Part shown: positions 12,032 to 26,883 of the stretch, piece after piece
How the letters are laid out: each line of letters begins with the position of its first letter
Position numbering within the stretch: the first letter of the stretch is position 1
Source of the DNA: Pseudomonadota bacterium
GTDB lineage: Bacteria > Pseudomonadota > Gammaproteobacteria > Pseudomonadales > Azotimanducaceae
NCBI GenBank assembly: GCA_047947185.1
Contig: CP170502.1
Location: 1,301,978 to 1,365,977 of the forward strand
Direction: 5' to 3'
DNA length: 64,000 nucleotides
Made by a program: the position numbers and the translations under genes
Notes under the pieces: model-generated
The model's database searches: none
Told to the model about the DNA's origin: nothing
The model's input: the letters and a program-made list of their open reading frames with translations, nothing else

Positions 12032-12874
12032 GTGAGACCGCGGTACCGTCAACTTTTACCTTTTGCGGGCCTGTTATCAGCCCTGCTGCTTTCCGCCTGT
12101 GTCGCCGGACCCGAGGCAATGCCAGCAGCCGCAACCCTGCAGGTCAGGCAGATCATGCAGGCAGGCAAACCGTTATCCTACTGGATTTTTGTTCCTCCGC
12201 AGCCAGCGCAGTCGCCACGGCCGATGCTACTCGTGCTTCCCGATGACCAGGACACGGCGTATGACTTTCTCCGCACCGGCGATTTCATGACCGATGCCAC
12301 AGCCAGGGGTTACATCGTTGTGGCACCAGATACCGGTGGCGTGACAGGGCCAGGTATCATCAGTGACATTGCCACGGCGGTGTCTGCCAGCCTTGCTGTC
12401 GATGAATCCCGGGTGCTGATTGCGGGCCAAGGCCGGGGTGGTGAAATTGCGCTGAATCTGATCCGCTCACACGCACACCCGTTTGCCGCGGGGGCTTTTA
12501 TGGCGCCAAGCACTGAAGCACCCCCGGCAGAAGTACCCGCCGAAGCACCCGCAAGGGCCATTCCGCTGATGCTGACCTATGGCGAGGCCAATGCCGGCAA
12601 CCTCGCAAACGCCAGGCAATGGGCCAGCCGGCTGGGTTGCGGGATGAGCCTGCAGGCAAGAAACGAGTTCGTTGAACAGGTCGGCTTCTATGGTTGCCGT
12701 AACGGCGCAGAGGTCATCTACCAGACCATCGAGGGACTGGCAGGTTGGACCGGCAGGGTCGTGTCGAACGCCACCGGGCGTGCTGGTTCAGTCAGCCTGA
12801 CCACGCTGGCCTGGCAATTCTTCGACAGGACCGCACCCGGCGACTCATCGCAGGGGTCAAACAGGCGCCCGTAA
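12032..12874 (+). CDS. Lipoprotein, alpha/beta-hydrolase-like (esterase / PHB-depolymerase-like) without a recognisable nucleophile motif
   Basis: Lipobox LLSAC. The layout resembles LpqC/PHB-depolymerase esterases (YWIFVP...LLVL..., IVVAPD, RVLIAG.G.GG). The nucleophile elbow reads GQGRG instead of GxSxG. Confidence 0.45.
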   Translation: MRPRYRQLLPFAGLLSALLLSACVAGPEAMPAAATLQVRQIMQAGKPLSYWIFVPPQPAQSPRPMLLVLPDDQDTAYDFLRTGDFMTDATARGYIVVAPDTGGVTGPGIISDIATAVSASLAVDESRVLIAGQGRGGEIALNLIRSHAHPFAAGAFMAPSTEAPPAEVPAEAPARAIPLMLTYGEANAGNLANARQWASRLGCGMSLQARNEFVEQVGFYGCRNGAEVIYQTIEGLAGWTGRVVSNATGRAGSVSLTTLAWQFFDRTAPGDSSQGSNRRP

Positions 12875-12885
12875 CTACGCCCTGG

Positions 12886-13257
12886 TCAGTAATTTTGTAG
12901 CAGGTAAATACTCAGTGCCCGCCGATCGTCTTCGGTATAGGGAAAACGGGGCATCGGCGGGGGTGGATTGGCCAACAGCAGCGACAGGGTTCTCACATCA
13001 TACCGCGACGCCAGGTTGACCAGTGGTCCGCCCACCCTGCGACCTTCAGCGTGGCAGGCGACAGCACAGCCATCACTGGCGAATATATTTGCCCCCACCG
13101 CCTCAAGCCGGGCAAGTTCATCAGCTGACAGGGTCAAGGGGACTTCAAAGGAGTCCGGTCCGGGTCTTTCACCCTTCAACACCTGCCAGGCAAGGTAACC
13201 CATGCCGGCAACAACAATGAGGCATACCATCAGTAACCCAATTTTTTGCCCTGGCAT
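12886..13257 (-). CDS. Membrane-anchored c-type cytochrome
   Basis: N-terminal TM helix and a single heme motif, CAVACH. It lies immediately downstream (4-nt gap) of the PQQ-ADH gene. Confidence 0.75.
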   Translation of the reverse strand: MPGQKIGLLMVCLIVVAGMGYLAWQVLKGERPGPDSFEVPLTLSADELARLEAVGANIFASDGCAVACHAEGRRVGGPLVNLASRYDVRTLSLLLANPPPPMPRFPYTEDDRRALSIYLLQNY

Positions 13258-13260
13258 GGA

Positions 13261-15486
13261 CTACCGATACCTCAGTTCATCCTGCAGGTCATGTGCCTGC
13301 CCGATGACATACGCCCTCAGTGCGGCAACATCGTCTTCTGCCAGCACATCACCAAACATCGGCATGCCCCGGTCTTGCAGGATGCCATCCAGCACAATTT
13401 CCCGGAATGCCATGTACTTGGCCGCGGGCATATGGCGCAGATCCGGGATTACCCCGCCGCCTTTCACACCGGCACCATGGCAAACCCCACAGTAGGTTGA
13501 ATACACCACGGCACCCTGGGCTATCTGTTCCGGCGTGCCTTCACGCGGGGGTGGCGGTGGTATGGGCGCATCCGGCGCGAGCGGCGGCAGGGTTGCCGTA
13601 CCCCCGAGCTTATAGGTCAGGATTTTGCCACGGCTTTTCTGGTTCAACATCTCGGCACCCCGGCCAAACGATAGCGCATAGGCACCACCCCAGCCTGCTA
13701 CCCAGGTGACATACTGTTCACCGTCAACCATATAGGTCACGGGTGGGGCAATCACCCCGGTTTGTGCTGGCGAGCGCCACAGCTCAACGCCATTGTCGGC
13801 CCGGTAGGCTTTTACTTCGCCAGCGGACGTCCCCTGGAATATCAGGTTGCCGGCGGTCGTCAGCATCCCGCCATTCCAGGCACCCGGGTGCTGGATTCGC
13901 CAGGCCTCCTCCTGCCTGACTGGATCCCAGGCTGAGACGTAACCGCGCATCATGCCGCCAAAGCGATCCTCAACGGTCTTGTCGACGAGTGGACCAGGGT
14001 CCCAGCTGATGGCCAGGTTCCACCGCCCTTCAACAAACTCGAAAGCCGGTTCGTGACCATAACCGTAGGGAATATCAAGCGCGGGTATGTAGACGAGCCC
14101 GGTTTCCGGATTAAACGCCATGGGATGCCAGTTATGCCCACCCAGGGGTGAAGGTTTGTGGAACGCGGCCTCAAGCTGTTCGTTACTCAATGACTTGAGC
14201 GCCTCTATCTGCTGATCAAGGGGCAGTGAGGACAGCGGATTGGGTGCCTGGTAGCGGGCGTTATCCGTTTCAACCGGCCGGCCGGACTCCGGGTCCACAT
14301 GGGTCGCCCAGGTAATCGGTATGTAGGGTTTGGCGGAAATAAACTCGCCATTGGTACGGTCAAGCACGTAGAAAAAACCGTTCTTGGGCGCCTGCAAAAT
14401 GACCTTGCGCGTCTCGCCGTTGATCTCGAGCTCAGCCAGGATCATGTGCTGGGTGGCGGTGTAGTCCCAGGTATCTCCCGGTGTGGTCTGGTAATGCCAG
14501 ATGTACTCGCCGGTATCAGGGTTGAGCGCAACAATAGATGACAGGTACAGATTGTCGCCGCCACCCGGGCTGCGCACCTGCTGGTTCCAGGGTGAGCCGT
14601 TACCCACGCCAATGTAAAGCTGGTTCAGCTCCGGGTCGTAGGCCATTGAGTCCCAGACAGTGCCACCACCACCCATGGTCCACCACTGCCCCGTCCAGGT
14701 TTTGGCTGCTGCTTCCATGGCGGGTGATACAAACGGCTCCGCCGGATTACCCGGTACCGTATAAAAGCGCCAGACCTGCTCGCCGGTGCTGGCGTCATAG
14801 GCGGTTACGTACCCGCGCACGCCATACTCGGCCCCACCATTGCCAATAATCACCTTGTCATTAACAACGCGTGGCGCGCCGGTAATGGTATAGGGTTTGG
14901 TGCGGTCAATGGTGTTGACATCCCACAGCACCTCACCGTTGGCCGCGTCCAGGGCCACCAGCCGTCCGTCCAGCGTGCCGACAAAAACCTTGCCCTTCCA
15001 GAGGGCCACCCCCCGGTTCACCACGTCACAGCAGGCATTCTTGCCCCATGACTTTGGGACCTGCGGATCATACTTCCAGATCAGTTCACCGGTTTTGGCA
15101 TTGTTGGCAAAAACCAGGCTCCAGGAACCGGTGCTGTACATCACCCCGTCAACCACAATGGGTGAAGCCTCGAGGCCGCGGTTGGTTTCCGTATCAAACC
15201 ACCAGGCCAGGCCAAGCTCACCCACATTGCTATCGTTGATCTGGTCCAGCGGACTGAATCTTGCTTCATCGTAGGTGCGGCCATGGGCCAACCAGTTGCC
15301 TGGTTCACTGTCGGCGTTGGTGATGCGCGCACCATCCACGCCGGCAGTAACTTCACGGATATGGTCCGCCATGGCGTTTGCTGTTTGTGGCAATTCAGCC
15401 GGAACCGGGACGCTATCTTCCTGCGTCAGCAGGAAAGCCAGCAGAATGACAAAAAGACCCGCTGCGAGCGCGATCAGGTTACGCAT
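13261..15486 (-). CDS. PQQ-dependent quinohemoprotein alcohol dehydrogenase (type II ADH)
   Basis: Signal/anchor peptide, a vicinal Cys pair (KNACCDVVNRG), W-rich propeller repeats and a C-terminal cytochrome c domain with CGVCHG. GGAGG RBS. Confidence 0.92.
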   Translation of the reverse strand: MRNLIALAAGLFVILLAFLLTQEDSVPVPAELPQTANAMADHIREVTAGVDGARITNADSEPGNWLAHGRTYDEARFSPLDQINDSNVGELGLAWWFDTETNRGLEASPIVVDGVMYSTGSWSLVFANNAKTGELIWKYDPQVPKSWGKNACCDVVNRGVALWKGKVFVGTLDGRLVALDAANGEVLWDVNTIDRTKPYTITGAPRVVNDKVIIGNGGAEYGVRGYVTAYDASTGEQVWRFYTVPGNPAEPFVSPAMEAAAKTWTGQWWTMGGGGTVWDSMAYDPELNQLYIGVGNGSPWNQQVRSPGGGDNLYLSSIVALNPDTGEYIWHYQTTPGDTWDYTATQHMILAELEINGETRKVILQAPKNGFFYVLDRTNGEFISAKPYIPITWATHVDPESGRPVETDNARYQAPNPLSSLPLDQQIEALKSLSNEQLEAAFHKPSPLGGHNWHPMAFNPETGLVYIPALDIPYGYGHEPAFEFVEGRWNLAISWDPGPLVDKTVEDRFGGMMRGYVSAWDPVRQEEAWRIQHPGAWNGGMLTTAGNLIFQGTSAGEVKAYRADNGVELWRSPAQTGVIAPPVTYMVDGEQYVTWVAGWGGAYALSFGRGAEMLNQKSRGKILTYKLGGTATLPPLAPDAPIPPPPPREGTPEQIAQGAVVYSTYCGVCHGAGVKGGGVIPDLRHMPAAKYMAFREIVLDGILQDRGMPMFGDVLAEDDVAALRAYVIGQAHDLQDELRYR

Positions 15487-15561: not shown

Positions 15562-18500
15562 TTACTGGGTACCTATACGCTGCATGAGGTTGCGGGCGTC
15601 GAACTGGTCAAACTTGACCCGATATTTGAGGTATACGCCTTTGGCTGTGTACTCGCTGGCACTGAAATCTTCATCATGGAATCCGGAGAAGTTATAGCCC
15701 AGCGACATCCAGACATTGTGTGCCATGTTGTAGCCAACCGAGACACCAAACGAGGTGTCCGAGGCGCCAGCCGCGTAAGAGTTATACATGCTTGTCTGTA
15801 CACCCAGGTCCCATTTGTTGTTCATATCGTGACGAATCTCCATCCCCAACAGGTCTGTAAACCCGCGATACTCATCGTCATCAAAGTTATCAACCACGTA
15901 CTTGGCGCCGTACTGGAACGCAATCTGGGTATTTTCCTGCCACAGATAGTTGGCATTCAGGTTGTTCACGATCTTCTGCGACACCACACTCGAATCAAGT
16001 GAACTGGACGTGTTACGCGACAGGTCCAGCCGGTTGAACAGGGTCCAGCGGCTGTCAATCGGCCGGAACGCATAACCCAGCCTTACGTCGGTAGTCGTCT
16101 GCGCAGAAAACTCGGTGTCATTTTTCTGGATGTTGATCTGGGCCAGCAACTGTGCCCCCTCATCCAGATCATGAATAACGTCACTTAGCAGGTTTACCTT
16201 GTCGCCGGTATCAGCCTTGCGATATTCGACCCGGGTGGACCAGTCCCAGGCGTTACGCTTGTAATTGGAGCCGAACGTCACCGCGGTAAAATCGTCATCC
16301 CCGGGGCTTGAGTAGACCGTGGTCACTTCCAGCTCAGGTGCAGCCCGCGTCTGCTTGATGGTCTGGGACCTGTCAACGCCAAAGTCGAAACTCCAGGCAT
16401 CGTTATACTCCCAGCGCTGCTTGAGACCGGCTACCGCCGCCAGCCGCTCGGAATTTTCCTGGTCAGCGCTTTGCTGTACCGAGGTGTTCAGTTCTGCACC
16501 GTCCCACAAGCGCGAACTCATGCCAATGCGGGTCCCCTGGGTATCCAGCTCTTCGCCCCAGGAGAACTCCTGTTCCGCGCTGAGGGTGACCGCGTCATTC
16601 AGCTTGTAATCCAGGCCAACACGCAGGCGCTTGGGGAAGTTGGCTGCTTCACCCTGTCCGCCTATCGGTGCATCGGCACTGGCTGTCAGGTTTGCCCTGC
16701 CATCCAGCACCTTGTAACTGCCACCCACCAGCACCTGGTTGGACACTGACTCCACACCATCTGCATCACTGACCGCGGATCTGAGCCCGGTATTGATGCT
16801 GTACTGGTCGTTGCGCATTTCCATGGTCGTCGACACCACGTCCTCGGTTGAACCTGTCCCAAGATTGGTCTGGCGATAGGCCTCACCACGGACTTCCACA
16901 CCGTCCCTGACCGTATAGGCGCCCTCAACACCCATCTTGCGGGTACCTGATTCACTGGCATTCTGCTGGCCAAGTCCAAACCCGCCGTCCTGCTCACGGA
17001 CGTAGGCCCGCGCATCCAGTTCCGCGTTGCGTCGCGAGATCTCGGCGAGATAAGCCGTACCGCTCGTTTCGCTACCGTCTTCCAGCTTGCTCCCGGTTGT
17101 CGCAATCTCTGCACGAAACTCGGTATCTGCGTCAATCTCAACAGCAACATCAACACCCAGCAGGCCGGTCTCCCGGTTTTCAACCCCTTCACGGATCGCC
17201 GTTGCGCCAACCTCAACCCGCTCGTTGGGCTTGTAGGCAACACGACCGCCCAGGTTCATTCGGTCCCGACCATCTCCTGCCGTTTCATAGTCTGCCACAA
17301 TAAATACCGGGTTAAATGCCGGGTCCTGGCTGTAAACCGGTTGTTTGAAGAAGATGGTGCCCGCGTCGTAATCAATGTTGTAATCAACGTAACGACGCAT
17401 ATCAACCGACTCGAGAATTCGCTCGGACCGGAAACGGTCGCGGGTTTCGAGCCTGATCTTTTCACTGTTGATCAGGATGCCGCCCGCTGACAACCGGTAT
17501 AAACCGGAGGTGCCATCACCCCGGATTTCGTCTTTTACAAACGCCTGGTTCGCCTCGCTCGCAAACGCAGAAAACTCGAACCTGTCACCCTCATATTCGG
17601 TCTTGAGGCCGGTGAAGTTCCTCGAGTAAGACGACAACTCATTGACGGTAAGCCCTGTCGTGAAGTCACCGAACAGGGCCGAAAACTGGTGTTTTTCCAG
17701 CTTCAGAAAGAGTTTTTCGTTGCTGGACGCATCGTACTGCAGGGTCGAGCGGTCGCCGTACAACGTGTAATAGGCGCTGGGGTCGATTGCCTGGGACAGG
17801 GCGTTTTTCTTTTCTTTGGCGGTATCGTAGGCAATCGTCAGGATGTACTCACCCTTGATTTGTCCCTTGGCATAAAACGCAACGCGCCCGTCTGCTGAGA
17901 ACTCATCATCCAGTCCGGCATCTGCAAGTCCTTCCATGTTCCCGGAGAGTTTCTGTTGGGCCAGTGAGCCTTCCGCGAGACCGACCATGATCCAGTCACG
18001 TTTTTCCGGCGCAACAAACAGCTCTATTTCCGTATCCTGCTCGTCACCATAGTAAAGGCTTGCATGATAAACACCGCTGCGGCTGACAGGGTTGAATTGC
18101 AACAGCCCGTCCGCGTCAACATCAATGTAGTTGCGATCCCTGATTTCCGCCAGCTCACTCAGGCTAAGCCCCCGGTCCAGCGCAACCAGGGAATCACTCT
18201 CAAAAACCAGTTTGTAAGGGCGCGATATTTTCTCACCGCTGCGGTCACGCAGATCAAGTTGCACCCTGACGGGTGTCCTGCCATCTGCAATATTGCCTTC
18301 GCTCTCAACCACCTCCAACCTGAACAGTTCACCTACACGCACGTAGGAAATCGTCTCGTCAAACCGTGCATTGCCAAAGCTGTCGACACCCTGAACGGTA
18401 ATCTGGTGTTCGCCCGGCTCACCCAGATCAACACCAATATAGCTGTACAGTGTTTTCCCGGTATCGCCGTCTTCCATGGTGAAACCGATTCGATCTTTCG

Positions 18501-21500
18501 GTACCTCGGTACCATCCACCAGCAGTTTTGGCTTCAGCCTGCTGTCAAGATCCAGTTTGATAGCCATGACCCGGGTGCTCACCCGCTCACCTTCGTTCAG
18601 GGTAATCAGGCCCTGCCGGTCAGGGTCACGACTGGCAACTGGTGTTTCACCACTGGCATCCAGCAGGTCCCAGCTACCGATTGCCTGGCTCCTGACTGAG
18701 GTTGATACCTTGACGTTCTGACCAGCCAGTTGCACAAGCGGCAAGCGATTGGGTGGCGTCTTTCCCTTCGGGGTTCCGACCGAGGTAAAACTCAGTCTTG
18801 CGGTACTGTCACCGGCGAGTACGCTGGCCGTGATAGTTCTGTCTTCCGGCAAATCGGGCGCAGCATTAAACAGCAGTTCAACCCGGCGGTTCTGCTGGCG
18901 CCCTGCCCGGGTCTCATTGGAGGCCACCGGATAGCGGTCGGCTGCACCTACCACGGCAATGGCAGGAAAGTCTCCCCGGCTGGCAAGGTAGTCAGCAACT
19001 GCCTGGGCACGCGCTTGTGATAGCGCCGCGTTGTCCGCAAATTCACCGCGATTCTCCGGCGCAATCCGCACGTTGTCAGTGTGCCCCACCACGGTCACTG
19101 CTTCCCAGCGTCGGTTACCCAGCTTTGCAATCAGTCTGTCGAGATCGGCGCGGTCTGCACTGGTGAGCGCCACGCTACGGGTTTCAAATCTCGGCTGCAG
19201 GGCAAGCAGCAGGTTATCGGGCGGCGGCTTCTTTTGACCCGGTTTGGGTTGAATGGCAAACCGGAGTTCTTTGCTGGTAACCACATCACCAATGTTCCAG
19301 ACGGTGCCAACAATGGACTGGCTATGGCTGATGGGGCTGCCGTCAAGTTCTTCGGTCCCCGCGATAACCGTCCAGCCCGCCGGCAGGCGGTAGATTACGC
19401 TGGCATCTTCTGCCACCACACGCCCTTCAGCAGACGCAGTGACCAGCACCCAGACCCGGTCGCCATCAACCGCCAGCGACTGTATCAACTCGATGTCAGA
19501 GACCGGCGGCGCCTTTTCCCTGACCCTGAAATCGGCACGCCACAGGGTACCACCCTGCAGGTCAACAAACTGCGAATGGGTCGCGCCCGCAAACCGGGCG
19601 TTGCTGTTACAGGGTGAGGGTTCATAACGCTCCTCCAGCGAGTCGATGTCCAGTTGGACAACATGACTGCCGGGTTCGATACCTTCCATGTGCCACATGC
19701 CCTCGTCATCTGTGATGACGTAAGAGCCGTCTTCCAGGAAAATCCGCACCCCGGGCATACCAGTCACCGGCGCCGGGTCACCCTGTCCTGCCTCATCAGC
19801 GCACTGTTCAAGTGTCACCCGGCCCGTGAGCATGGCTTTTCGACTGAACAGGTCATCCGTCACCACCACCCTCGCGGTTGCGGTGTTGCTCGAGACAATC
19901 AGGTCACCCATCACGCTCGCGGTATTGACTGCCGGCCCCAGGCCAGCGCCGGCCGTAATTTCGGCAACGTAGCGTACGTCAACAGGCTCAGTGCCAACCG
20001 GTGGCAGGTTAATGGTCAGCAGTGAACCATTGGCGTCAATCGAGGGATCCGGTGCCCGGGCGCCATCAATCCTGAGCGACCCTGACTGGAACCGAAACCC
20101 TTTGGGCAGCCTGTCGACGATGGCGCTGTCTCCCGCCGTGCCGCCGTTTTCGTTGTTTACGGTAATTCGATACTGGATAAAGTCTCCGATCGCTGCCACA
20201 TCGCGGCTGGCTTCTTTTTGCAGGAAAACGTTTGCGGACGGCTCGTCAATGGGCACATCAATGTTCAGCGCCGGTCCGACCGGTACTTCAAAAACGTCGC
20301 CACGCGAACCATCCACTACCTGGAAAGGTGCACCATTCAAACCCTGGATGACCAGGTCACTGACAACCGACGGGAACACCAGGTTGGCCGGCAGGTTGGT
20401 CACTTCCAGCCGGTAGTTGCCCGGCGCAACAAATGGAAACCGATATTCACCGTCGGGGAAGTCATACTGGAGCCCCGCGTCATCGGTAACGCTGCCGCCG
20501 GTCACCAGGGTGCTGGGAAAGGGGGCAAACAGCGGACCATCACCAAACACTGCCGCGGGCTCATTGGTATCGGCATTAACCAGCGTAATTGTTGCCCCGT
20601 TGATGAGTTCGCCGTTGCGGGTGCTGAACACCCGACCAAAAGGGTCCACCAGGACAAGGCTTTCGGAGCTGTCGGTGTTGTCAAACGCATCCGTGTAGGT
20701 GCTGGTGATCGGCTGGTTTTTCACAACCCCCAGCGTACAGCTGCCGGAAGATGATTCTTCTTCCGCCGATTGAATGTAGCCGATAAATTCACCGCTGTTT
20801 GGCTCAGTCTCGGTGAGTTCCAGGAATTCACGGTCGCCGCTGGCGGCAACATCCAGTTGGACGGTGATTGTCTCCCGGACATTGGCATCACGGTTCTGGT
20901 CCGCGTCTGTCACCTTGACAAAAACCGGCTGGCCTACCTTGATGACATCAGTCCTGATCAGGTTGACCACACCGGGTACTGGCACCAGGACGTTCCTGAG
21001 TTCCACTACCTCACGGGTCTGGCCTGCAACACAAACGGTTTGCTGGACGTTATAGGGTGTGCCCACGGCGGGATTGGGGCTGTACTGAAAAAATTCTGTT
21101 TTTGACGGCGAGGGACTGGCAGGCACTGCTGGCCCAATCCGCGTGACCGGGATATCAATCCTGGGCAGTGCCCCCTGGCTGACGCGAAACGGAAGTCCAC
21201 GTGACGCATCAGACAGTCGATAAGCACCGTCGGAAGTAACCGTGAGGGCACGCTCGAGGCTGGCGCCAAGCGACTGCAGCTCACTGTCTGGGCGCTGCGA
21301 AAACACATATCTCTGCGTGTTAAAGATCTCGAGCCGGTACTCCCCGTCAGGAATGGCTGGAAAACGGTATTCACCGGCATCCACGTCATAGACTGCGCCA
21401 GACCGATCCCGGGTATCTTCACCCGACTTTAGCGCTGACGGATAGAGTGAATAGACCGGACCGTCCCCGCGAACGTCCGCCGGCGTTGACGTGGCAACAC

Positions 21501-22785
21501 GCACCAGGGTGAGGATGACACCATTGACCGGTTCCCCGGTCGTGTCATCGAAGACGATACCTACAGGCGCAATATCGGCCAGCCTGGTGCTGATATCCTG
21601 CCCGTCAGTGGGATCTGTATAAGTTGCATTCACCTGGGACCGCGAGCGTACATTGAGGATACAGTCCTCGGGTACACTCACCTGGTTGGTGGTGATGACA
21701 TACCCCACAAAATAACCGCTATCCGGGCCTGACTCGAACAGACGCACCGTTTCGGTATCATTGGTCAGGCTCACATTCACGACCACATCAACCGATTCGA
21801 CCAGGAGGGGATTGTAGTTCTGGTCCATATCGCTGACACCAATATAGACTGGATCTCCAATGGCATAAGCATCAACAGGATCAACCGACAGATCGCCAAA
21901 TGGATTCGGACTACGAAAATCCAGGGAGCGTGACGCAATGGCAAGATCTCCGCCAAACTGACATACGGCAGGCTCAATCGCGTAAGTGTTGCCCGTTGCA
22001 TCAGGCGCCAACAATTCTATGTTCGATGGGGTCGGTACAACGGTCCGCACAGTTGTAATCACAGCCGACAACTCGGTCTTTAAACCACCCCTGTCGGTCG
22101 CAACAACTGTGACGGGAACCTCGGTATCAGGCGGCAGCAAGACGCCTTCCGCCAGGGACAACACGCCATCAACCACAACAAAGCGATCATCGCCGGCCAC
22201 AGTAAAAACGTGCTCATCACCCGCGTCAGGATCTGAAACGCTGAGTTCGCCAATCACCTGTCCGGGTGAATCGGGCGGTACATATCCACTGCTTAATGTC
22301 AGGTCAAACGGCGTCTCGTTGACGTCGAACACCTTAACATCGAAAGTCTCCTCGTAAACATTACCGCCGTCATCCGTGACACTGATTCTTACCGGGACTT
22401 CAGGCTCGGTCTCATAATCAAGGGAGACCCCGGCAACCAGCCGCAGTTGATCATCAACGACCTCAAAGCGTGCATCGCTGACTGACCAGACATGGCCGGT
22501 AACCTGATCGGGGTCAACCACAAGCACCGGACCGACAACAGCACCCGGCACATTCTCCAGGACGAAGGCCACTTCACAGCCAGCATCGTCGGCACAGTCA
22601 AGGTCAATGTCGGTCGGGGCGTCATCACCGTCGGTGAACTCAAGCGTAAAACTGACCCTGGCCTCGATGCCCTCTGGCGCACCGGCGAACGTAAGGCGGG
22701 CAAGGTTGGTGTAGATATCACCGTTCTGTTGCGCGTCTGCTGGCGTCGCAGAAAAGAAAAGGGCCATGGCAACTACCGTTACCAT
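15562..22785 (-). CDS. Giant (~2400 aa) envelope protein with adhesin-like repeats, an internal OmpA-like domain and a large C-terminal predicted beta-barrel
   Basis: Domain order, N to C:
- Signal-like N-terminus MVTVVAMALFFSATPADA.
- Two cadherin-like repeats (DVNETP).
- A duplicated ~300-aa beta-sandwich module (GEYRFP...YRLE).
- DUF11-type repeat (IGDFIQYRITVNN...NTASV).
- OmpA_C-like domain (VTVVGHTDNVRIA...LSQARAQAVADYL...NRRVELL, about nt 18860-19200).
- Ig-like domain.
- About 800 C-terminal aa of amphipathic beta-strands (about nt 15565-18000).
The start could instead be the ATG at 22893. Confidence 0.85.
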   Translation of the reverse strand: MVTVVAMALFFSATPADAQQNGDIYTNLARLTFAGAPEGIEARVSFTLEFTDGDDAPTDIDLDCADDAGCEVAFVLENVPGAVVGPVLVVDPDQVTGHVWSVSDARFEVVDDQLRLVAGVSLDYETEPEVPVRISVTDDGGNVYEETFDVKVFDVNETPFDLTLSSGYVPPDSPGQVIGELSVSDPDAGDEHVFTVAGDDRFVVVDGVLSLAEGVLLPPDTEVPVTVVATDRGGLKTELSAVITTVRTVVPTPSNIELLAPDATGNTYAIEPAVCQFGGDLAIASRSLDFRSPNPFGDLSVDPVDAYAIGDPVYIGVSDMDQNYNPLLVESVDVVVNVSLTNDTETVRLFESGPDSGYFVGYVITTNQVSVPEDCILNVRSRSQVNATYTDPTDGQDISTRLADIAPVGIVFDDTTGEPVNGVILTLVRVATSTPADVRGDGPVYSLYPSALKSGEDTRDRSGAVYDVDAGEYRFPAIPDGEYRLEIFNTQRYVFSQRPDSELQSLGASLERALTVTSDGAYRLSDASRGLPFRVSQGALPRIDIPVTRIGPAVPASPSPSKTEFFQYSPNPAVGTPYNVQQTVCVAGQTREVVELRNVLVPVPGVVNLIRTDVIKVGQPVFVKVTDADQNRDANVRETITVQLDVAASGDREFLELTETEPNSGEFIGYIQSAEEESSSGSCTLGVVKNQPITSTYTDAFDNTDSSESLVLVDPFGRVFSTRNGELINGATITLVNADTNEPAAVFGDGPLFAPFPSTLVTGGSVTDDAGLQYDFPDGEYRFPFVAPGNYRLEVTNLPANLVFPSVVSDLVIQGLNGAPFQVVDGSRGDVFEVPVGPALNIDVPIDEPSANVFLQKEASRDVAAIGDFIQYRITVNNENGGTAGDSAIVDRLPKGFRFQSGSLRIDGARAPDPSIDANGSLLTINLPPVGTEPVDVRYVAEITAGAGLGPAVNTASVMGDLIVSSNTATARVVVTDDLFSRKAMLTGRVTLEQCADEAGQGDPAPVTGMPGVRIFLEDGSYVITDDEGMWHMEGIEPGSHVVQLDIDSLEERYEPSPCNSNARFAGATHSQFVDLQGGTLWRADFRVREKAPPVSDIELIQSLAVDGDRVWVLVTASAEGRVVAEDASVIYRLPAGWTVIAGTEELDGSPISHSQSIVGTVWNIGDVVTSKELRFAIQPKPGQKKPPPDNLLLALQPRFETRSVALTSADRADLDRLIAKLGNRRWEAVTVVGHTDNVRIAPENRGEFADNAALSQARAQAVADYLASRGDFPAIAVVGAADRYPVASNETRAGRQQNRRVELLFNAAPDLPEDRTITASVLAGDSTARLSFTSVGTPKGKTPPNRLPLVQLAGQNVKVSTSVRSQAIGSWDLLDASGETPVASRDPDRQGLITLNEGERVSTRVMAIKLDLDSRLKPKLLVDGTEVPKDRIGFTMEDGDTGKTLYSYIGVDLGEPGEHQITVQGVDSFGNARFDETISYVRVGELFRLEVVESEGNIADGRTPVRVQLDLRDRSGEKISRPYKLVFESDSLVALDRGLSLSELAEIRDRNYIDVDADGLLQFNPVSRSGVYHASLYYGDEQDTEIELFVAPEKRDWIMVGLAEGSLAQQKLSGNMEGLADAGLDDEFSADGRVAFYAKGQIKGEYILTIAYDTAKEKKNALSQAIDPSAYYTLYGDRSTLQYDASSNEKLFLKLEKHQFSALFGDFTTGLTVNELSSYSRNFTGLKTEYEGDRFEFSAFASEANQAFVKDEIRGDGTSGLYRLSAGGILINSEKIRLETRDRFRSERILESVDMRRYVDYNIDYDAGTIFFKQPVYSQDPAFNPVFIVADYETAGDGRDRMNLGGRVAYKPNERVEVGATAIREGVENRETGLLGVDVAVEIDADTEFRAEIATTGSKLEDGSETSGTAYLAEISRRNAELDARAYVREQDGGFGLGQQNASESGTRKMGVEGAYTVRDGVEVRGEAYRQTNLGTGSTEDVVSTTMEMRNDQYSINTGLRSAVSDADGVESVSNQVLVGGSYKVLDGRANLTASADAPIGGQGEAANFPKRLRVGLDYKLNDAVTLSAEQEFSWGEELDTQGTRIGMSSRLWDGAELNTSVQQSADQENSERLAAVAGLKQRWEYNDAWSFDFGVDRSQTIKQTRAAPELEVTTVYSSPGDDDFTAVTFGSNYKRNAWDWSTRVEYRKADTGDKVNLLSDVIHDLDEGAQLLAQINIQKNDTEFSAQTTTDVRLGYAFRPIDSRWTLFNRLDLSRNTSSSLDSSVVSQKIVNNLNANYLWQENTQIAFQYGAKYVVDNFDDDEYRGFTDLLGMEIRHDMNNKWDLGVQTSMYNSYAAGASDTSFGVSVGYNMAHNVWMSLGYNFSGFHDEDFSASEYTAKGVYLKYRVKFDQFDARNLMQRIGTQ

Positions 22786-22910
22786 GACCCTTACACGTTT
22801 TATGCATCGAACGAGAATATCAGCACATCCTGCCAAAGTGGCATCGGCGCGGCTTACACCGTTTCTCCTGTACTGATTTCCCGTGATCCACATCCAATCA
22901 TCATCAGGCT

Positions 22911-24092
22911 CTAGTCAACCTGTATACGGTAGACGACACGCGCAACGCCGTTGAGGCTGCCAGTGTCTTCCCCACCTGTCAGTGACCCGCTGGTGCCTAC
23001 AAGCAGACCACCATCGTCAGCATCACTTGCCAGCGGGAAATCGTTCGGGTCCGCGGTAACCGTGTCATCACTGACCGCCAGTGTGTTCAGCAGTGTCGTG
23101 CCTGACACATAAGACGTGTACTGCGGCAGTGTGTCGGACAGCACCGCACCCGTTATTGCCGTGCCTGTCGGGTTGTCCATGACAATCAGGTACTCCAGCA
23201 CACCGCCTGGTTCAGCAGTCACCCCACCATCAAAATAGTTGTTGGCGCCGCTGCCCGAATCATAACTGACCGCACCGGTACCACCGCTCTCATCACAGAG
23301 GCTGATACAACGGACCAGCTTGGTCATGATGATCTCGACAATATCGATGTCCACATCGTCGGTAAACGTCGTGGCCCCGTTATTCAGCGACGTGGTCACT
23401 GTAATGTCTGCAGCAGGCGTTGCCGATACTGTCTTCGCACCTACATCCGCCACGCTCATCGTAAAGGTTTCCGATTCGAATATGCCTTCGCCAACCGGGA
23501 GGCCGCCTGGAATATTGGCCGTAAACGTAATTGTCGAAGTACCGGAGGCGTTGTCGACAACACTCAACACCGTGTATTCAATGTTGTTGATCACCACCGT
23601 ATCAGTAGGTGCGAGACCGTTCACCTCGCCGTCACTGGTGCCATCTGAAGGCACAGTCACGGTGGGACTACCACCCGGTGAAATCGCCGCCAGCGCCGTT
23701 GCACCCAGCTCAATACTGCCAACCGAGGGTGTGATGACATAGCCACCGCCCGGTGCCGTGACGTTGTTGGAACCTGTCACTGCACCACTGATCGTGTAGG
23801 TGTCGACACCGTTGTTCTGTGCATACACCTTGTAACTGATCAGGGCTGACGCGTTCTCAGGCTTGGATTGATCCGGTGGCACCGAAAAGGCCGGGTTGAT
23901 CCTGACGTCAGCCTTGACGAGGCTCACCGTGACGGTGACCTCTGCCGTAATGCCGGTTGGATTACCCGAGTACACCAGTTTTGCCTGGTTGATCAGCGCC
24001 GTGTTGGCCGGTGTTAATGCCAGCGCCGCCGGTGCGCCGAACATCAGGCCAAGCGCCACCAGAACCACTGCATGAAGTTTAAAAGATTTCAT
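22911..24092 (-). CDS. Secreted two-domain DUF11-type repeat protein
   Basis: Signal peptide MKSFKLHAVVLVALGLMFGAPAALA and an AGAGGA RBS. The Thr/Val/Gly-rich beta-sandwich sequence ends ...ARVVYRIQVD, like its paralog at 24120. A Cys pair is present (VRCISLC). Confidence 0.8.
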   Translation of the reverse strand: MKSFKLHAVVLVALGLMFGAPAALALTPANTALINQAKLVYSGNPTGITAEVTVTVSLVKADVRINPAFSVPPDQSKPENASALISYKVYAQNNGVDTYTISGAVTGSNNVTAPGGGYVITPSVGSIELGATALAAISPGGSPTVTVPSDGTSDGEVNGLAPTDTVVINNIEYTVLSVVDNASGTSTITFTANIPGGLPVGEGIFESETFTMSVADVGAKTVSATPAADITVTTSLNNGATTFTDDVDIDIVEIIMTKLVRCISLCDESGGTGAVSYDSGSGANNYFDGGVTAEPGGVLEYLIVMDNPTGTAITGAVLSDTLPQYTSYVSGTTLLNTLAVSDDTVTADPNDFPLASDADDGGLLVGTSGSLTGGEDTGSLNGVARVVYRIQVD

Positions 24093-24119
24093 TACTACGT
24101 CCTCTGAGAATTCTTATGG

Positions 24120-24867
24120 CTAGTCAATTTGTACAAGGTAACGAACAACCGACACGTTGCCCGCGTCGATAGTCCCGCCAATAGCACCCACCTCATTGGC
24201 ACCCGCACCGGCGAAGACGGTAATTTCATCCGGATCCGGCGTGGTATTCACACCGCCGAAATCCCCGCCCGTGGCCAGCGTATCGTCGACGTTAGCCGCC
24301 GAAAGACTGCCTGTTACCGTACAGGTGCCCGTCGCTGCCGCACTACAGGCACCCGCGCCGTCCGCTGCTGTCGTATTGGGCAGCACCTGGATGGTGGTTG
24401 CCTGGTAGGTCGTGAAATTGACAAAGGGGTCTGTCACAACCACGTTCTGGACGTCGCCACCGTCGTTGTACAGAAGGATGATGTATTCAAGGTCTTCGCC
24501 CGGCTGAGCACTCACACCATCTGCATAGTAGGTTGTACCGCCAACCACAACACAGGAGAAAGCTGCGGCGCCACATGAAGCAGGGTTGCTCGCAAAGGTG
24601 TCAAGGTTCCTGACAAACTTGTAGATCTGCAGATTGGCGGCCAGCACGGTAATCAGCGGAGTCATAGGCAATGGCGGGGATTGCCGGCAGCAGGTTAACC
24701 GTCACAATGACAGAATCAGTGGCTGTCAGGCCCGTTGCTGTCAGGCTGTCGTAAGTGACAGTTACCGTGTTGCGCAGTTGCGCCTGGGACGCGGTCCCGG
24801 CGGCAAGCGCCTGGCCGGCAAATGCTGCCACCAACAGACCCAGACCAATTCTTACTATACTTCTCAT
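24120..24867 (-). pseudogene. Secreted DUF11-type protein with interrupted reading frame (+1 shift needed between 24701 and 24604)
   Basis: Frame A (ATG 24867, signal peptide MRSIVRIGLGLLVAAFAGQALA) stops at 24601. Frame B (open from 24701 to 24120) encodes a domain paralogous to the C-terminus of the 393-aa neighbour but has no signal peptide. A G4/C4 run lies at 24676-24679. This could be a real frameshift, a sequencing error, recoding, or two separate genes. Confidence 0.5.
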
Positions 24868-24953
24868 GTTGAGCGCCTCTAACCTTAACTTCGTGTGAAA
24901 CCGCCACACCCAAATGTAACGACTGTAAAACTCATTTCAAAAATCGTGCCAGA

Positions 24954-25454
24954 TTACTGAACCAGCACCACAAAACTGACCTCACCGGTTTCGCCGGGCG
25001 GAATTTCCTCAATCAACCAGCGAATATTGGTGAATCTTTCCGGCGATGCCTTACGTCGGTCTGTGCCGCCGCCAAAGACGGTCACCTCGTAGGTCACCTC
25101 CTCTGGCGGGCTGTACGTCTGGCCGCCGTCTGCTGAAAAGACAATGGTAGAGCCCGTTCCCGATGCGGAATCCGACAGGTAAACCGTCAGGTCCGGAATA
25201 GGATTCTCAATCCTCACCTCGGTTGCAGGCTCGTCACCCATGTTGACGTAGCGCACTGTATAGCGGAGCTTCTGACCGGGTTCGATCTCCTCGGCTTCGA
25301 CCCAGCGCGTCACTTCCTGACCATTTTCTTCAACGACCACTTCTTTCAACACGTTCATGTCGAGTTGAATATTGGGATCGGCCATGGCCACAGAGGGCGT
25401 CAGCACGGCCATCAATATCAATTCCATCAACATCAGTCTTTTCCTGTTCTTCAT
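24954..25454 (-). CDS. Small secreted single-domain DUF11-type protein
   Basis: Signal peptide MKNRKRLMLMELILMAVLTPSVAMA from the ATG at 25454. DUF11-like core (GQKLRYTVRYVNMGDEPATEVRIENPIP...GETGEVSFVVLVQ). Confidence 0.8.
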   Translation of the reverse strand: MKNRKRLMLMELILMAVLTPSVAMADPNIQLDMNVLKEVVVEENGQEVTRWVEAEEIEPGQKLRYTVRYVNMGDEPATEVRIENPIPDLTVYLSDSASGTGSTIVFSADGGQTYSPPEEVTYEVTVFGGGTDRRKASPERFTNIRWLIEEIPPGETGEVSFVVLVQ

Positions 25455-25708
25455 CGAGTCCAGGATTCCTTGCGAATATCGAGCCAAGATCTTCATTGTT
25501 CTACCATCGTGTCAGAAACTTGTTGTTGAGCTTTAGACGCACTCTTGCGCATGGTATTCAATCAAACCACACGCCACAAGCGAAAATTTCAATGAAAATA
25601 GCGGGTTAACGCCAATTTCAAAGAAACCGTATGAAGTCTTGCTGCCAGGATTCCTCAACCCTTCCCTATTGGATGAATCACATTATAGGAGGGCCAAACT
25701 GTTTAAAC

Positions 25709-25752
25709 TGTAAGCAACTTGTAAGCAATTGATAACCGGTTGTTAACCTACG
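25709..25752 (+). promoter_or_regulatory. Four 11-bp-phased direct repeats (TGTAAGCAACT / TGTAAGCAATT / GATAACCGGTT / GTTAACCTACG), candidate response-regulator binding site
   Basis: The repeats are read directly from the sequence, in the AT-rich 358-bp region upstream of the DUF11 cluster. OmpR/ArcA-type regulators bind direct repeats at about 11-bp spacing. The function is inferred only. Confidence 0.3.
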
Positions 25753-25854
25753 ACGGGCGGCTGGAAACCGATCATAAAGAATCACAACCTATTGATTTAA
25801 CTTAACAAATTGGCACGCTTGTGAATCGCTGGAAACAGACTGCCAGCCAGTACG

Positions 25855-26064
25855 TTAACCCTGAGTGGTGACTATTGATACAGATTCAAGCGCTGGATCA
25901 TACACAATCGCGGCCTGTCCGGACCGGAGTTGCGCCAGCACATCAGCGATCTTCTCTGGCAGTGGCACCTCCTGGGCGCCGTATTCAGTCCCTTCCCGCG
26001 TCACAAACTCTTCGATAACACCGCGAAGGGCGTCCTGCGACAGACTTTCCCAGGGCACAATCAC
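25855..26064 (-). CDS. yheU: YheU family protein (UPF0270)
   Basis: 69 aa; MIVPWESLSQDALRGVIEEFVTREGTEYG is the typical YheU N-terminus. Confidence 0.85.
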   Translation of the reverse strand: MIVPWESLSQDALRGVIEEFVTREGTEYGAQEVPLPEKIADVLAQLRSGQAAIVYDPALESVSIVTTQG

Positions 26065-26172: not shown

Positions 26173-26883
26173 ATGCCTGAGTTTATTGCCAACCTGCTGA
26201 TAGTCGAAGATGAACCCATCACGCGGTCACAGTTGGCGGCACACTTTCGGCGCGAAGGCTACGGCATCACCGAACTGGAAACCGCAGACGGCGTTCAGCA
26301 GGCAATCGACAGCAGCAATATTGATATCTGCCTCATCGACATCAACCTGCCTGGTAAAGACGGCCTGACGCTTACCCGGGAGCTGAGAAACGGCTCAGAC
26401 GTGGGCATCATCCTGGTCACTGGCAAAGACGAACAGATTGACCGCATACTGGGCCTCGAGAGCGGCGCTGACGACTACGTCACAAAACCCTTTGATCCCC
26501 GGGAACTGCTCTCTCGCGTCAAGAACCTGCTCTGGCGCATTCGTGCCCAGGAGAAACAGAAGGAGAAAGGCTTCAAGCGAAAGTTTGCTGACTGGACCCT
26601 CGACCTTAACAAACGCGAACTGTTGACACCTGATGGTGAAATCCAGCCCCTTTCTGCCGGCGAGTTCCACCTGCTGCTTGCCCTGATCGAAAACGCTGGC
26701 CAGGTCATGACCCGTGATCAACTGATGAACCGGATCCGCAACCGCGAATGGTATCCCGATGATCGCTATATTGACGTGCTGGTGGGCCAGGTCCGGCGAA
26801 AGTTCCGCGAACACGCACCCGACACGACCTTCATCAGTACAATACACGGTACCGGCTACCTGTTTGCGCCTGATGTGACCTGA
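26173..26883 (+). CDS. OmpR/PhoB-family response regulator, ArcA-like
   Basis: REC domain (LLIVEDE, phospho-acceptor context CLIDINLPGKDG, GADDYVTKPF) plus a winged-helix C-terminus (ISTIHGTGYLF). It aligns well with E. coli ArcA by eye. Confidence 0.9.
   Translation: MPEFIANLLIVEDEPITRSQLAAHFRREGYGITELETADGVQQAIDSSNIDICLIDINLPGKDGLTLTRELRNGSDVGIILVTGKDEQIDRILGLESGADDYVTKPFDPRELLSRVKNLLWRIRAQEKQKEKGFKRKFADWTLDLNKRELLTPDGEIQPLSAGEFHLLLALIENAGQVMTRDQLMNRIRNREWYPDDRYIDVLVGQVRRKFREHAPDTTFISTIHGTGYLFAPDVT

Follow-up and report, generated by a model that had tools for sequence, protein, structure and literature searches.

How could a compact gene cluster that encodes three small secreted proteins and one giant, apparently outer-membrane protein build a structure at the cell surface? 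A locus of this kind lies in the window, the 64,000-nt stretch of DNA analysed here. The reading favoured on computational evidence, to which we would give a probability of about 0.55, is that the cluster is a self-contained envelope fibre system. It would be based on a split CLIPPER domain (the current Pfam name of DUF11; CnaA-like), joined head-to-tail, with the giant protein (the mega-protein) as its base. This looks like an apparently undescribed chaperone-free and sortase-free route to building and anchoring a cell-surface fibre.

Organization of the locus

ORF calls give four co-directional genes on the minus strand, extending from 15562 to 25454 or 25496, as described in an earlier note on this DNA (Table 1). 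The upper limit depends on the start of the first gene, s165: the ORF (24954–25496, minus strand) encodes 180 aa, which falls to 166 if translation begins at M15 (25454). Similarly, the longest ORF for the mega-protein (15562–22893, minus strand) encodes 2443 aa from the first ATG at 22893, and the start noted earlier, 22785, is close to the likelier ATG. The spacer ahead of this gene folds with z = -4.6. Signal peptides, assessed by eye, indicate from the sequence that all of the cluster proteins are Sec-exported.

The second gene consists of two overlapping frames, 24120–24671 and 24601–24909 (minus strand), which bears out the frame interruption reported earlier. As a result of the frameshift, the socket domain is read in a different frame from the signal peptide and hairpin, and in addition ~190 aa (the middle domain) are deleted. 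One of the three small genes of the earlier note is degraded in this window. Upstream of the cluster, the AT-rich spacer is real, but the 'phased repeats' attributed to it amount to just one tandem repeat. Its position beside a two-component system needs qualification, as a 69-aa UPF0270-like ORF (25855–26064, minus strand) intervenes between the spacer and the response-regulator gene.

Table 1. Features of the cluster and its flanking region, in window coordinates
Feature	Coordinates	Strand	Basis or remarks
AT-rich promoter/regulatory spacer	25497..25854	.	Tandem 11-bp repeat TGTAAGCAACT / TGTAAGCAATT at 25709-25730
s165, secreted single-domain CLIPPER protein	24954..25454	-	166 aa, socket only, no N-terminal hairpin
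Gene 2, degraded paralog of ~470-aa subunit class	24120..24867	-	ATG 24867
s400, 393-aa subunit	22911..24092	-	Signal peptide, donor hairpin, middle domain and truncated C-terminal CLIPPER socket
Putative s400 donor hairpin, aa 29-57	23922..24008	-	TPANTALINQAKLVY...AEVTVTVSLV; contains Asn35; aligns to CLIPPER profile positions 100-126
Putative s400 acceptor (socket) domain, aa ~250-393	22914..23345	-	Ends ...VVYRIQVD (last strand); invariant Lys258 and Asp320
Perfect 15-bp stem-loop and U-run	22759..22792	-	Encloses SD-like AAGGG and ATG 22787 of mega-protein gene
Mega-protein gene	15562..22787	-	Likelier start ATG 22787; SD-like sequence; short signal peptide
Putative mega-protein N-terminal donor hairpin, aa 60-87	22633..22716	-	IYTNLARLTFAGAPEGIEARVSFTLEF; weak profile match
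Internal complete CLIPPER domain of mega-protein, aa 891-1008	19870..20223	-	Own profile positions 1-127, 136.5 bits
OmpA-like peptidoglycan-binding domain, mega-protein aa 1236-1336	18886..19188	-	52.8 bits (cut-off 27.2)
Two Ig-like domains, mega-protein aa ~1429-1569	18187..18609	-	AlphaFold2; Foldseek matches include intimin D00-D0
Predicted first barrel block, ~9 strands, highly conserved loops, aa ~1588-1781	17551..18132	-	AlphaFold2 and family conservation
Predicted small beta domain inserted in barrel, aa ~1783-1849	17347..17547	-	Family's most conserved motif, KDEIRGDGTSGLYRL
Predicted main barrel, ~32 long antiparallel strands, aa ~1862-2426	15616..17310	-	AlphaFold2

A CLIPPER domain split between proteins

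The small proteins had been described as DUF11-like. This holds for s165, which is above the DUF11 cut-off (30.8 bits), and for s400, which matches TIGR01451 only at threshold (24.6 vs 24) and reaches 47.8 bits with a 127-position CLIPPER profile built in this analysis. On this profile, internal CLIPPER domains end at a median position of 124 (n=354). All 107 CLIPPER domains located at a protein C terminus (s400, n=61; s165, n=35; big adhesins, n=6; other, n=5) stop at position 92–95 of 127, with the s165 family ending at 93–94 (n=35). The N-terminal hairpin peptides align to median positions 97–123 (n=105); 83% of hairpins fall in that profile region, against 7.5% of random middle-domain peptides from the same proteins.

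Among s400-sized proteins, 79 have the hairpin; it was never found in s165 proteins. Most complete mega-proteins carry it directly after the signal peptide (32/68 score at least 8 bits) and others have an NGDxIxNxA variant; the mega-protein has complete internal CLIPPER domains and offers a donor only. Appending a hairpin to s165 raises the Pfam DUF11 score from 32.1 to 38.6–39.8 bits and extends profile coverage from 4–58 to 4–96 or 4–99. On sequence grounds, the s400 hairpin corresponds to the last two CLIPPER strands, and the s400 socket lacks exactly those strands. This pattern, a new finding, indicates a split CLIPPER domain, with a two-strand 'plug' at the N terminus and a 'socket' at the C terminus, and it lends specific support to the earlier suggestion that the small proteins are polymerised or displayed subunits.

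The isopeptide triad is split in the same way, with Lys and the catalytic Asp in the socket and Asn in the hairpin. Lys is found in 105/108 and Asp in 106/108 s400 sockets, compared with 159/178 and 166/178 complete internal CLIPPER domains, and Asn occupies the first strand in 108/117 hairpins. This Asn is absent in ~8% of donors, including 2/14 close relatives of the window's s400, so a covalent lock cannot be universal.

In the AlphaFold2 monomer model of s400, the hairpin comprises strands 32–41 and 44–55 and is predicted with moderate confidence (pLDDT 66–77); the linker that follows has pLDDT < 50. This model cannot separate complementation in trans from complementation in cis. In the latter case s400 would be a circularly permuted monomer in which the socket is filled by the hairpin of the same chain and the middle domain is an insertion, and s165 would cap the mega-protein hairpin 1:1. 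No polymer would form, and the product would be a giant fibrillar adhesin, anchored in the outer membrane and accompanied by a few accessory proteins. The hairpin pLDDT and a linker long enough for fold-back are consistent with this, donor and acceptor counts would still be even if s165 pairs with the mega-protein, and in the pilins RrgA and Spy0125 large insertions are known to separate the isopeptide residues of CnaA-like domains (PMC12617251). Complementation in cis nevertheless seems unlikely, as it leaves unexplained both the identical split position in three protein classes and the retention, at most loci, of two or three s400 paralogs, each with donor and acceptor. It would also leave the Lys and Asp that are conserved in socket-only large adhesins without an Asn partner.

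The mega-protein

Domain and PDB searches bear out the cadherin-like, CnaB-like/carboxypeptidase-regulatory, DUF11 and OmpA modules previously read in the mega-protein. Cadherin and SdrD_B matches are under their Pfam/NCBIfam cut-offs, and protocadherin chains in the PDB match aa 149–238 (E 4e-6). CarboxypepD_reg matches aa 753–832 with 38.8 bits (cut-off 32.3), and DUF11/CLIPPER matches aa 891–1008 with 38.2 bits (cut-off 24.6). The N-terminal hairpin is strong in the family and weak in the window's protein (3.8 bits, CLIPPER profile positions 96–123).

Residues 1350–2443 have no Pfam or NCBIfam match. AlphaFold2 modelling of aa 1400–2443 (pLDDT 76, pTM 0.62; low pLDDT in conserved loops) gives two Ig domains, ~9 strands, a small beta domain, which could act as a barrel plug, and ~32 further long antiparallel strands. 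The last of these ends with a beta-signal-like KGVYLKYRVKF, followed by a short helix. The last ~850 aa are thus predicted to form a very large outer-membrane beta-barrel of unassigned family. The earlier note had staked its hypothesis on a C-terminal beta-barrel of ~800 aa, and a very large barrel is what the model contains. A search of the PDB with the barrel-family profile gave no match, and Foldseek returned generic large barrels only (TM <= 0.22).

A mainly structural role in the envelope, as an outer membrane–peptidoglycan tether or large pore (like OmpA, OmpM or SlpA), is a distinctly improbable alternative. The stalk and small CLIPPER proteins would then form a periplasmic or cell-bound layer, with no exported fibre. 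The mid-protein position of the OmpA-like domain, directly N-terminal to the Ig domains and barrel, would suit such a role, as would the lack of any encoded dedicated translocon besides the mega-protein itself. The 30-strand SlpA of Deinococcus is among the best Foldseek matches to the barrel, but with a TM of just 0.18, and the OmpA domain, found in ~75% of the family, is missing from 15/60 complete members. Stalk domains of the cadherin-like, CnaB-like and CLIPPER types are characteristic of surface adhesins (PMC12617251), and the small subunits are fast-evolving (~30% identity), as in exposed proteins.

Conservation and distribution

A ~165-aa gene and one to three ~400-aa genes lie directly upstream of, and co-directional with, the mega-protein gene in 48/51 related loci with enough flank, from several phyla. 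The co-occurrence expected by the earlier note is therefore seen elsewhere. Many relatives also carry a large multi-CLIPPER adhesin in the operon, which is socket-only. No other conserved neighbour family was found by ORF clustering over 84 loci. At 50% identity the barrel family falls into at least 2,500 clusters, with members from Desulfobacterota, Gamma-, Beta- and Zetaproteobacteria, Nitrospirota and Lentisphaeria; many of the Gram-negative bacteria that have the operon are environmental.

In keeping with the earlier note, which had seen no chaperone, usher, sortase, T1SS/T2SS or autotransporter features and knew of no characterised pathway of this composition, Pfam/NCBIfam searches gave generic domains only, with no usher, PapD-type chaperone, sortase, autotransporter or T1SS/T2SS part, and literature searches found no published description of such a system. 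A divergent chaperone-usher, type V (auto- or inverse-autotransporter) or type IX secretion pathway is hardly credible: FimD, PapC, SprA and intimin D00-D0 are among many weak Foldseek matches and the N-terminal passenger and C-terminal barrel recall autotransporters, but Pfam/NCBIfam also gave no match to autotransporter/intimin barrels or T9SS parts, the barrel lacks close structural matches (above), ORF clustering of the 84 neighbourhoods revealed no conserved chaperone or second outer-membrane protein, and the barrel region is ~3x the length of an autotransporter barrel.

Proposed assembly

In the fibre system favoured here, the hairpin of one protein would insert into the socket of the next, generating a head-to-tail chain. 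The mega-protein N terminus would be its base, at least one s400 would lie in the middle, and a socket-only protein would occupy the distal end. The incoming hairpin may be locked in the s400 socket by a spontaneous Lys–Asn isopeptide bond. A comparable sequence has been reported for BsaA, in which donor-strand exchange precedes locking by an Asn/Glu/Lys isopeptide bond (bioRxiv 10.1101/2024.11.04.621531), and archaeal threads are reported to combine donor-strand complementation with isopeptide bonds (PMC9715654). s165 lacks a conserved triad (in the window, Arg is at the Lys position and Asn at the Asp position) and probably binds non-covalently, as tip, initiator or cap. Its role can be read in more than one way: no other small protein of the cluster is as well conserved, which fits an exposed tip less well than an assembly factor.

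The OmpA-like domain would tie the mega-protein to peptidoglycan. Since the barrel is the unit's only outer-membrane component, it is the likely route of the stalk and subunits to the surface, usher-like but fused to the anchoring, terminating subunit. We infer export through the barrel lumen; as the OmpA domain lies between stalk and barrel, the N-terminal ~1,200 aa would have to pass through a barrel to reach the outside.

Comparison with known systems

A similar domain composition is found in CLIPPER/DUF11 fibrillar adhesins such as B9T28_05395 of Acinetobacter silvestris (PDB 9IFR), which combines CLIPPER and cadherin-like domains in its stalk with an OmpA-like anchor in a Gram-negative host, with the same Lys/Asp/Asn triad within the CLIPPER domain (PMC12617251). 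The bonds described there are intramolecular, in complete domains of one polypeptide, whereas split domains, small subunit genes and a giant barrel are not described (PMC12617251).

In BsaA/TasA-family fibres and archaeal threads, as proposed here, an N-terminal Asn-bearing donor enters the neighbouring subunit, and an acceptor Lys and acidic catalytic residue lock it by an isopeptide bond (bioRxiv 10.1101/2024.11.04.621531; PMC9715654). Their subunit fold is unrelated, and their hosts are archaea or monoderm bacteria, where no outer membrane has to be crossed; in the present cluster the triad is the Asn/Asp/Lys of a CLIPPER domain, and the base would be a giant outer-membrane barrel protein. 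Sortase-assembled Gram-positive pili (SpaA, RrgB, Ebp) are also covalent chains of CnaA/CnaB-type domains, and the s400 model has weak Foldseek matches to EbpB, EbpC and PilB. In contrast to these pili, the cluster has no sortase gene, LPXTG motif or pilin motif, its host is diderm, and the proposed linkage would be autocatalytic, inside a reconstituted domain.

The top Foldseek matches of the barrel are very large single-chain barrels (SprA of the T9SS, 36 strands; SlpA, 30; LptD, 26), and these resemble the mega-protein in having a very large barrel after soluble domains. TM values are just 0.14–0.22, with no sequence similarity, and partners and gene context differ.

Chaperone-usher pili (Fim, Pap, archaic Csu/CupE) share several architectural features with the proposed system: Sec-exported Ig-like subunits, an incomplete fold that the next subunit's N-terminal extension fills in, an acceptor-only tip subunit, components encoded in one operon, and an outer-membrane barrel, into which a plug-like domain is inserted, as platform. 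Unlike these pili, the cluster lacks a PapD-like chaperone, and its barrel is not homologous to ushers. Its donor would be a two-strand hairpin of the CnaA-like fold rather than a single strand, possibly with a Lys–Asn covalent lock. The barrel has roughly 40 strands in the model, where ushers have 24, and the same polypeptide also contains the stalk, the terminating donor and the OmpA domain.

Gene content of the cluster

The four co-directional minus-strand genes described in the earlier note are present (see table). They encode a single-domain secreted protein of about 165 aa (s165), a degraded paralogue of a ~470-aa subunit class (gene 2), a subunit of the ~400-aa class (s400) and a giant protein of about 2,400 aa (the mega-protein). 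The start previously assigned to the mega-protein, 22785, corresponds closely to an ATG at 22787 preceded by an SD-like AAGGG; translation from this ATG gives the signal peptide MVTVVAMALFFSATPADA.

Most of the domains first read from the sequence are recovered by Pfam and NCBIfam (OmpA, CarboxypepD_reg and DUF11), but matches to SdrD_B and Cadherin fall below cut-off. OmpA-like PDB chains match the mega-protein (E 6e-9), as do protocadherin chains (E 4e-6), despite the sub-threshold Cadherin model. Residues 1350-2443 have no match in Pfam or NCBIfam. DUF11 (PF01345) is now named CLIPPER, a CnaA-like domain that often carries an Asp-catalysed intramolecular Lys-Asn isopeptide bond (PMC12617251). 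The s165 protein exceeds the DUF11 cut-off (30.8 vs 24.6 bits). The s400 protein is at the threshold of TIGR01451 (24.6 vs 24) and below that of PF01345 (15.6 bits), and scores 47.8 bits against the CLIPPER profile built in this analysis.

Features of the cluster, its neighbours and related loci (window coordinates unless a locus is named; aa, mega-protein residues)
Feature	Position	Strand	Details
Mega-protein ORF	15562-22893	-	2443 aa counted from first ATG
CarboxypepD_reg, mega-protein	aa 753-832		Pfam/NCBIfam
DUF11/CLIPPER, mega-protein	aa 891-1008		38.2 bits vs cut-off 24.6
OmpA domain, mega-protein	aa 1236-1336		PF00691, 52.8 bits vs cut-off 27.2
Stem-loop	22759-22792	-	Perfect 15-bp stem then U-run; encloses SD-like AAGGG and ATG 22787 of the mega gene
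s400 gene	22911-24092	-	393 aa
Gene 2	24120-24867	-	Frameshifted
s165 gene	24954-25496	-	166 aa from M15 at 25454
Tandem direct repeat	25709-25730		TGTAAGCAACT / TGTAAGCAATT, 11-bp spacing, in AT-rich promoter spacer
UPF0270/YheU-like ORF	25855-26064	-	69 aa; between promoter spacer and divergent response-regulator gene
OmpR-type regulator	26173-26883		Transcribed divergently from the cluster
Hybrid kinase	26922-33293	+	2123 aa; Ser/Thr kinase, AAA_16, GAF, PAS, HisKA, HATPase, receiver and Hpt modules
Multi-CLIPPER protein heading operon, Desulfobacterota locus L002	2943-7979		1678 aa
Multi-CLIPPER protein heading operon, Desulfobacterota locus L004	3445-6678		1077 aa

Distribution and gene order

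A word-indexed search with the C-terminal region of the mega-protein returned more than 1,000 homologues, labelled merely 'OmpA family', 'DUF11 domain-containing' or 'TIGR01451 repeat'. Exhaustive search of a library clustered at 50% identity gave 4,713 representatives with a cut-off of E <= 1e-3 and 2,505 with E <= 1e-30. When each species was represented by a single genome, at least 565 loci were detected. The hosts are mainly Proteobacteria and Desulfobacterota, and loci occur in Desulfobacterota (Geomonas, Geobacter, Desulfosarcina, Smithella), Gamma-, Beta- and Zetaproteobacteria, Nitrospirota and Lentisphaeria. The nearest locus, from an uncultured Pseudomonadales MAG, shows 89% identity.

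The small genes do accompany the mega gene, as the earlier note had supposed. Among 51 loci whose upstream flank extends over 5 kb or more, HMMs for s165 and s400 place both co-directionally and immediately upstream of it in 48; a single s400 copy is present in 10 loci, two copies in 37 and three copies in three. The best conserved small protein is s165, with 38-43% identity between the gammaproteobacterial copy in the window and two Desulfobacterota copies. All-versus-all clustering of ORFs from 84 loci revealed no further conserved family (no chaperone, sortase, peptidase or second outer-membrane protein). Of 60 complete family members, 45 have an OmpA-like domain. As judged from gene content and order, the operon is conserved and self-contained.

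On the closest long contig, L001, the mega gene is in two pieces, 7884-10004 (706 aa) and 10001-15283 (1760 aa), and the s400 genes are also fragmented. These breaks are probably frameshift errors of long-read metagenome assembly.

A CLIPPER domain split between hairpin and socket

Visual inspection shows that s400, gene 2 and the mega-protein have a common motif at the mature N-terminus, NxAxLxY...AxVTVxL, and that the small proteins stop abruptly after a strand (in s400, ...VVYRIQVD). An HMM of this N-terminal two-strand segment, referred to here as the hairpin (consensus AGTxIxNTAxxxYxxG......SNxVxVxV), locates it in 79 proteins of s400 size, where it follows the signal peptide directly, and has no match in any s165. 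Most complete mega-proteins bear a hairpin, 32 of 68 at 8 bits or more and others, including that of the window, in a variant form, NGDxIxNxA.

The longest ORFs of many mega-proteins include 55-95 residues ahead of the hairpin; the window stretch concerned is 22788-22893, and other examples are L062, L064, L069, L070, L073 and L074, with the hairpin at residue 91-111. The extra residues point to an extended signal peptide, as in large type V secretion proteins, or may reflect mis-called starts.

The other half of the split is seen with a 127-position CLIPPER profile, seeded by the complete domain of the window and iterated over the loci. Internal CLIPPER domains (n=354) end at a median profile position of 124 (mode 126), whereas all 107 C-terminal domains, the sockets, end at 92-95 (61 in s400, 35 in s165, six in large adhesins and five in other proteins). 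Hairpin peptides (n=105) align to median positions 97-123, the part that is missing from the sockets. They reach it in 83% of cases, compared with 7.5% for length-matched middle-domain peptides of the same proteins. When a hairpin is joined to s165, the score against Pfam DUF11 increases from 32.1 to 38.6-39.8 bits and model coverage from 4-58 to 4-96/99. The internal domain of the mega-protein has the full CnaA-like sandwich of 7-9 strands, with Lys on the first strand, Asp, and Asn on the penultimate strand; the terminal domains of s165 and s400 are without the Asn strand, which sits on the N-terminal hairpins.

Judged on these alignments, the three classes of protein have a socket only, both hairpin and socket, or a hairpin only, the break falls at a single fixed position throughout, and hairpin and socket are very probably complementary parts of one CLIPPER domain. 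The mega-protein is donor-only, since the internal CLIPPER domains of mega-proteins are complete. A candidate truncated acceptor within it, a weak match at aa 1141-1220 ending at position 98, was rejected, as the equivalent in relatives reaches 115-125. Gene 2 retains the signal peptide, hairpin and socket of its class, with the ~190-aa middle domain deleted and the frame shifted; as it stands, it would yield an 88-aa secreted peptide containing only the hairpin.

In the AlphaFold2 model of the window s400 (pLDDT 79), the hairpin forms strands at 32-41 and 44-55, and pLDDT drops below 50 in the linker that comes next. Foldseek comparison of this model with the PDB gives weak matches only, to pilins and MSCRAMM adhesins. 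A second, profile-based database search for the s400 alignment gained just seven proteins, because these subunits evolve too fast for a word index.

The isopeptide triad and probable trans complementation

The Lys, Asp and Asn of the CLIPPER isopeptide bond are divided in the same way. Of 108 s400 sockets, 105 have the Lys and 106 the Asp (Lys258 and Asp320 in the window), and Asn is present in 108 of 117 hairpins; the corresponding values for complete internal domains are 159/178 (Lys) and 166/178 (Asp). In terms of residue conservation, the triad is thus shared out between hairpin (Asn) and socket (Lys, Asp). A conserved isopeptide Lys in s165 was considered but is not supported: 21 of 34 members have Lys at the canonical position, where the window protein has Arg, and the Asp position is Asn in 18, among them the window protein, and Asp in 16. 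As it lacks a conserved triad, s165 more probably acts as a tip, initiator or cap that binds non-covalently.

In Desulfobacterota loci, the operon includes an upstream 1,000-1,700-aa multi-CLIPPER protein that lacks a hairpin and ends in a truncated socket retaining Lys and Asp. These socket-only proteins are candidate tip adhesins. The operon of the window does not contain a gene for a large adhesin of this kind.

These features suggest that the hairpin of one protein would fill the socket of another, head to tail, and we consider it probable that complementation acts in trans. The main alternative is complementation in cis, each hairpin completing the socket of its own chain so that no polymer is formed. 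This would leave unexplained both the orphan Lys and Asp in the socket-only adhesins and the maintenance of several paralogues each with donor and acceptor, and is considered unlikely.

The C-terminal region of the mega-protein

The earlier note expected the C-terminal region to form a membrane barrel, and structure prediction bears this out. An AlphaFold2 model of aa 1400-2443, built from a 50-sequence alignment with homologues (pLDDT 76, pTM 0.62), contains, in order, two Ig domains, about nine beta-strands, a small beta domain, about 32 long antiparallel strands and a short terminal helix. The predicted barrel spans ~850 aa and roughly 40 strands, the strand number and closure being estimates. 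Its small beta domain carries the most conserved motif of the family, KDEIRGDGTSGLYRL, and the last strand, KGVYLKYRVKF, resembles a BAM beta-signal.

Foldseek comparison with the PDB gives generic large barrels alone (SlpA, SprA, LptD, TonB-dependent receptors, FimD, PapC and MtrB; TM <=0.22), and matches the Ig part to intimin D00-D0. A profile search of PDB sequences has no match to the barrel; sequence searches match the OmpA and cadherin parts only. As Foldseek returns weak generic barrels and the PDB profile search is empty, the barrel appears to represent a structurally uncharacterized family.

The most conserved residues family-wide (RDWI.VGLAEG, IDP..YYTLYGD and FYALFGD..TGL) are encoded at 17551-18132 (aa ~1588-1781), at the start of the barrel. 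These conserved loops, modelled with low AlphaFold2 confidence, may form a functional site, e.g. for subunit docking.

As the sole outer-membrane component, the barrel is the likely export route and anchor; we consider it about as likely as not to act as the conduit. A purely structural role for the mega-protein, as tether or pore, would fit poorly with the adhesin character of its stalk domains and with the fact that some family members have no OmpA domain, and is improbable.

Possible regulation and flanking genes

The spacer between the s400 and mega genes (22735-22915, 181 nt) is strongly structured (-70.9 kcal/mol, z = -4.6). The stem-loop within it may act as an attenuator or translational throttle, which would keep expression of the mega-protein under that of the subunits and so set the subunit to mega-protein ratio.

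The tandem repeat in the promoter spacer, preceded by AAACTGTTTAAACTGT, would suit an OmpR-type regulator and is a candidate binding site for the adjacent one. This regulator and the giant kinase adjoin the operon in both the window and its closest relative (L001). Regulators vary by lineage, and Desulfobacterota loci have a sigma-54 activator in place of this pair. The UPF0270/YheU-like ORF, absent from the first list of genes, is kept at the same place in L001 (4737-4961). Downstream of the cluster in the window is a PQQ dehydrogenase-cytochrome c gene.

A proposed fibre assembly system

In the proposed trans arrangement, a distal socket-only protein would be joined to one or more s400 subunits and these, at the base, to the N-terminus of the mega-protein, whose OmpA domain would tie the barrel to the cell wall. 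The sockets of s400 may lock the incoming donor through a Lys-Asn isopeptide bond. There is precedent for such locking of a donor in BsaA fibres (bioRxiv 10.1101/2024.11.04.621531) and in archaeal threads (PMC9715654); here, a covalent lock is a plausible but tentative proposal.

Taken in full, the reading is that the cluster represents an unrecognized class of diderm surface fibre, assembled by trans insertion of hairpins without chaperone or sortase, locked by autocatalytic Lys-Asn bonds, and both exported through and terminated on a ~40-strand barrel. This barrel would be larger than any solved single-chain barrel and fused to its own stalk and peptidoglycan anchor, and the class would be widespread in environmental Proteobacteria, Desulfobacterota, Nitrospirota and others. 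We give this combined reading a probability of about 0.35.

If the model holds, it would describe a new route to Gram-negative surface fibres, with machinery homologous to neither chaperone-usher nor Gram-positive pili, uniting the donor-strand logic of the former with the covalent robustness of the latter. It would also assign a function to a very large uncharacterized family, which comprises at least 2,500 clusters at 50% identity and is frequent among bacteria of sediments and metal cycling, such as Geobacter relatives, Desulfobacterales and Zetaproteobacteria, for which it is important to attach to minerals and partner cells. With the barrel, a new outer-membrane fold of very large size would be added, and split CLIPPER pairs could be used as orthogonal protein-ligation tags shaped by natural evolution. 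Hairpin insertion followed by the isopeptide lock would be nature's equivalent of SpyTag/SpyCatcher.

Comparison with known systems

Membership of an already known pathway is very unlikely, as the defining features of each are missing. For chaperone-usher pili, no PapD-like chaperone (PF00345/PF02753) is encoded in the window and no such family is conserved in the 84 loci; Pfam and NCBIfam detect no usher barrel (PF00577), the PDB profile search is empty and Foldseek matches to FimD and PapC have TM 0.15-0.22. Neither the autotransporter barrel (PF03797) nor the intimin/invasin barrel (PF11924) with LysM is detected by Pfam or NCBIfam, and the former has 12 strands in contrast to the roughly 40 predicted here over ~850 aa. 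No sortase is found in the window neighbourhood or the loci, and the subunits end right after the last strand, with no LPXTG-type signal. Pfam matches to T9SS components (SprA translocon) or cargo sorting domains are also absent.

Three further systems were set aside. The Zetaproteobacteria 'sfz' twisted-stalk cluster, considered since the family occurs in Mariprofundus and Ghiorsea, consists of BcsB-like and glycosyltransferase genes and is unrelated; haloarchaeal Tat-fimbriae and the Litorilinea DUF11 'grappling hook' are different systems. Searches of the literature available without subscription turned up no account of operon, barrel or split domain. The donor-strand principle itself is well known.

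The nearest described type is a fibrillar adhesin of Gram-negative bacteria that combines CLIPPER and cadherin domains with an OmpA-like anchor, the account of which deals with complete domains and intramolecular bonds only (PMC12617251). With BsaA-type 'exchange and lock' fibres, the family shares a donor Asn and an acceptor Lys and acidic residue, a mechanistic analogy rather than homology. The domain split is analogous, in sequence terms, to the one seen in chaperone-usher pili, but fold and donor differ. The proposed chain would also have the polarity and logic of these pili, with an acceptor-only tip and growth ending on a terminating subunit. Overall, the system resembles a cross between a chaperone-usher pilus and an 'exchange and lock' fibre.
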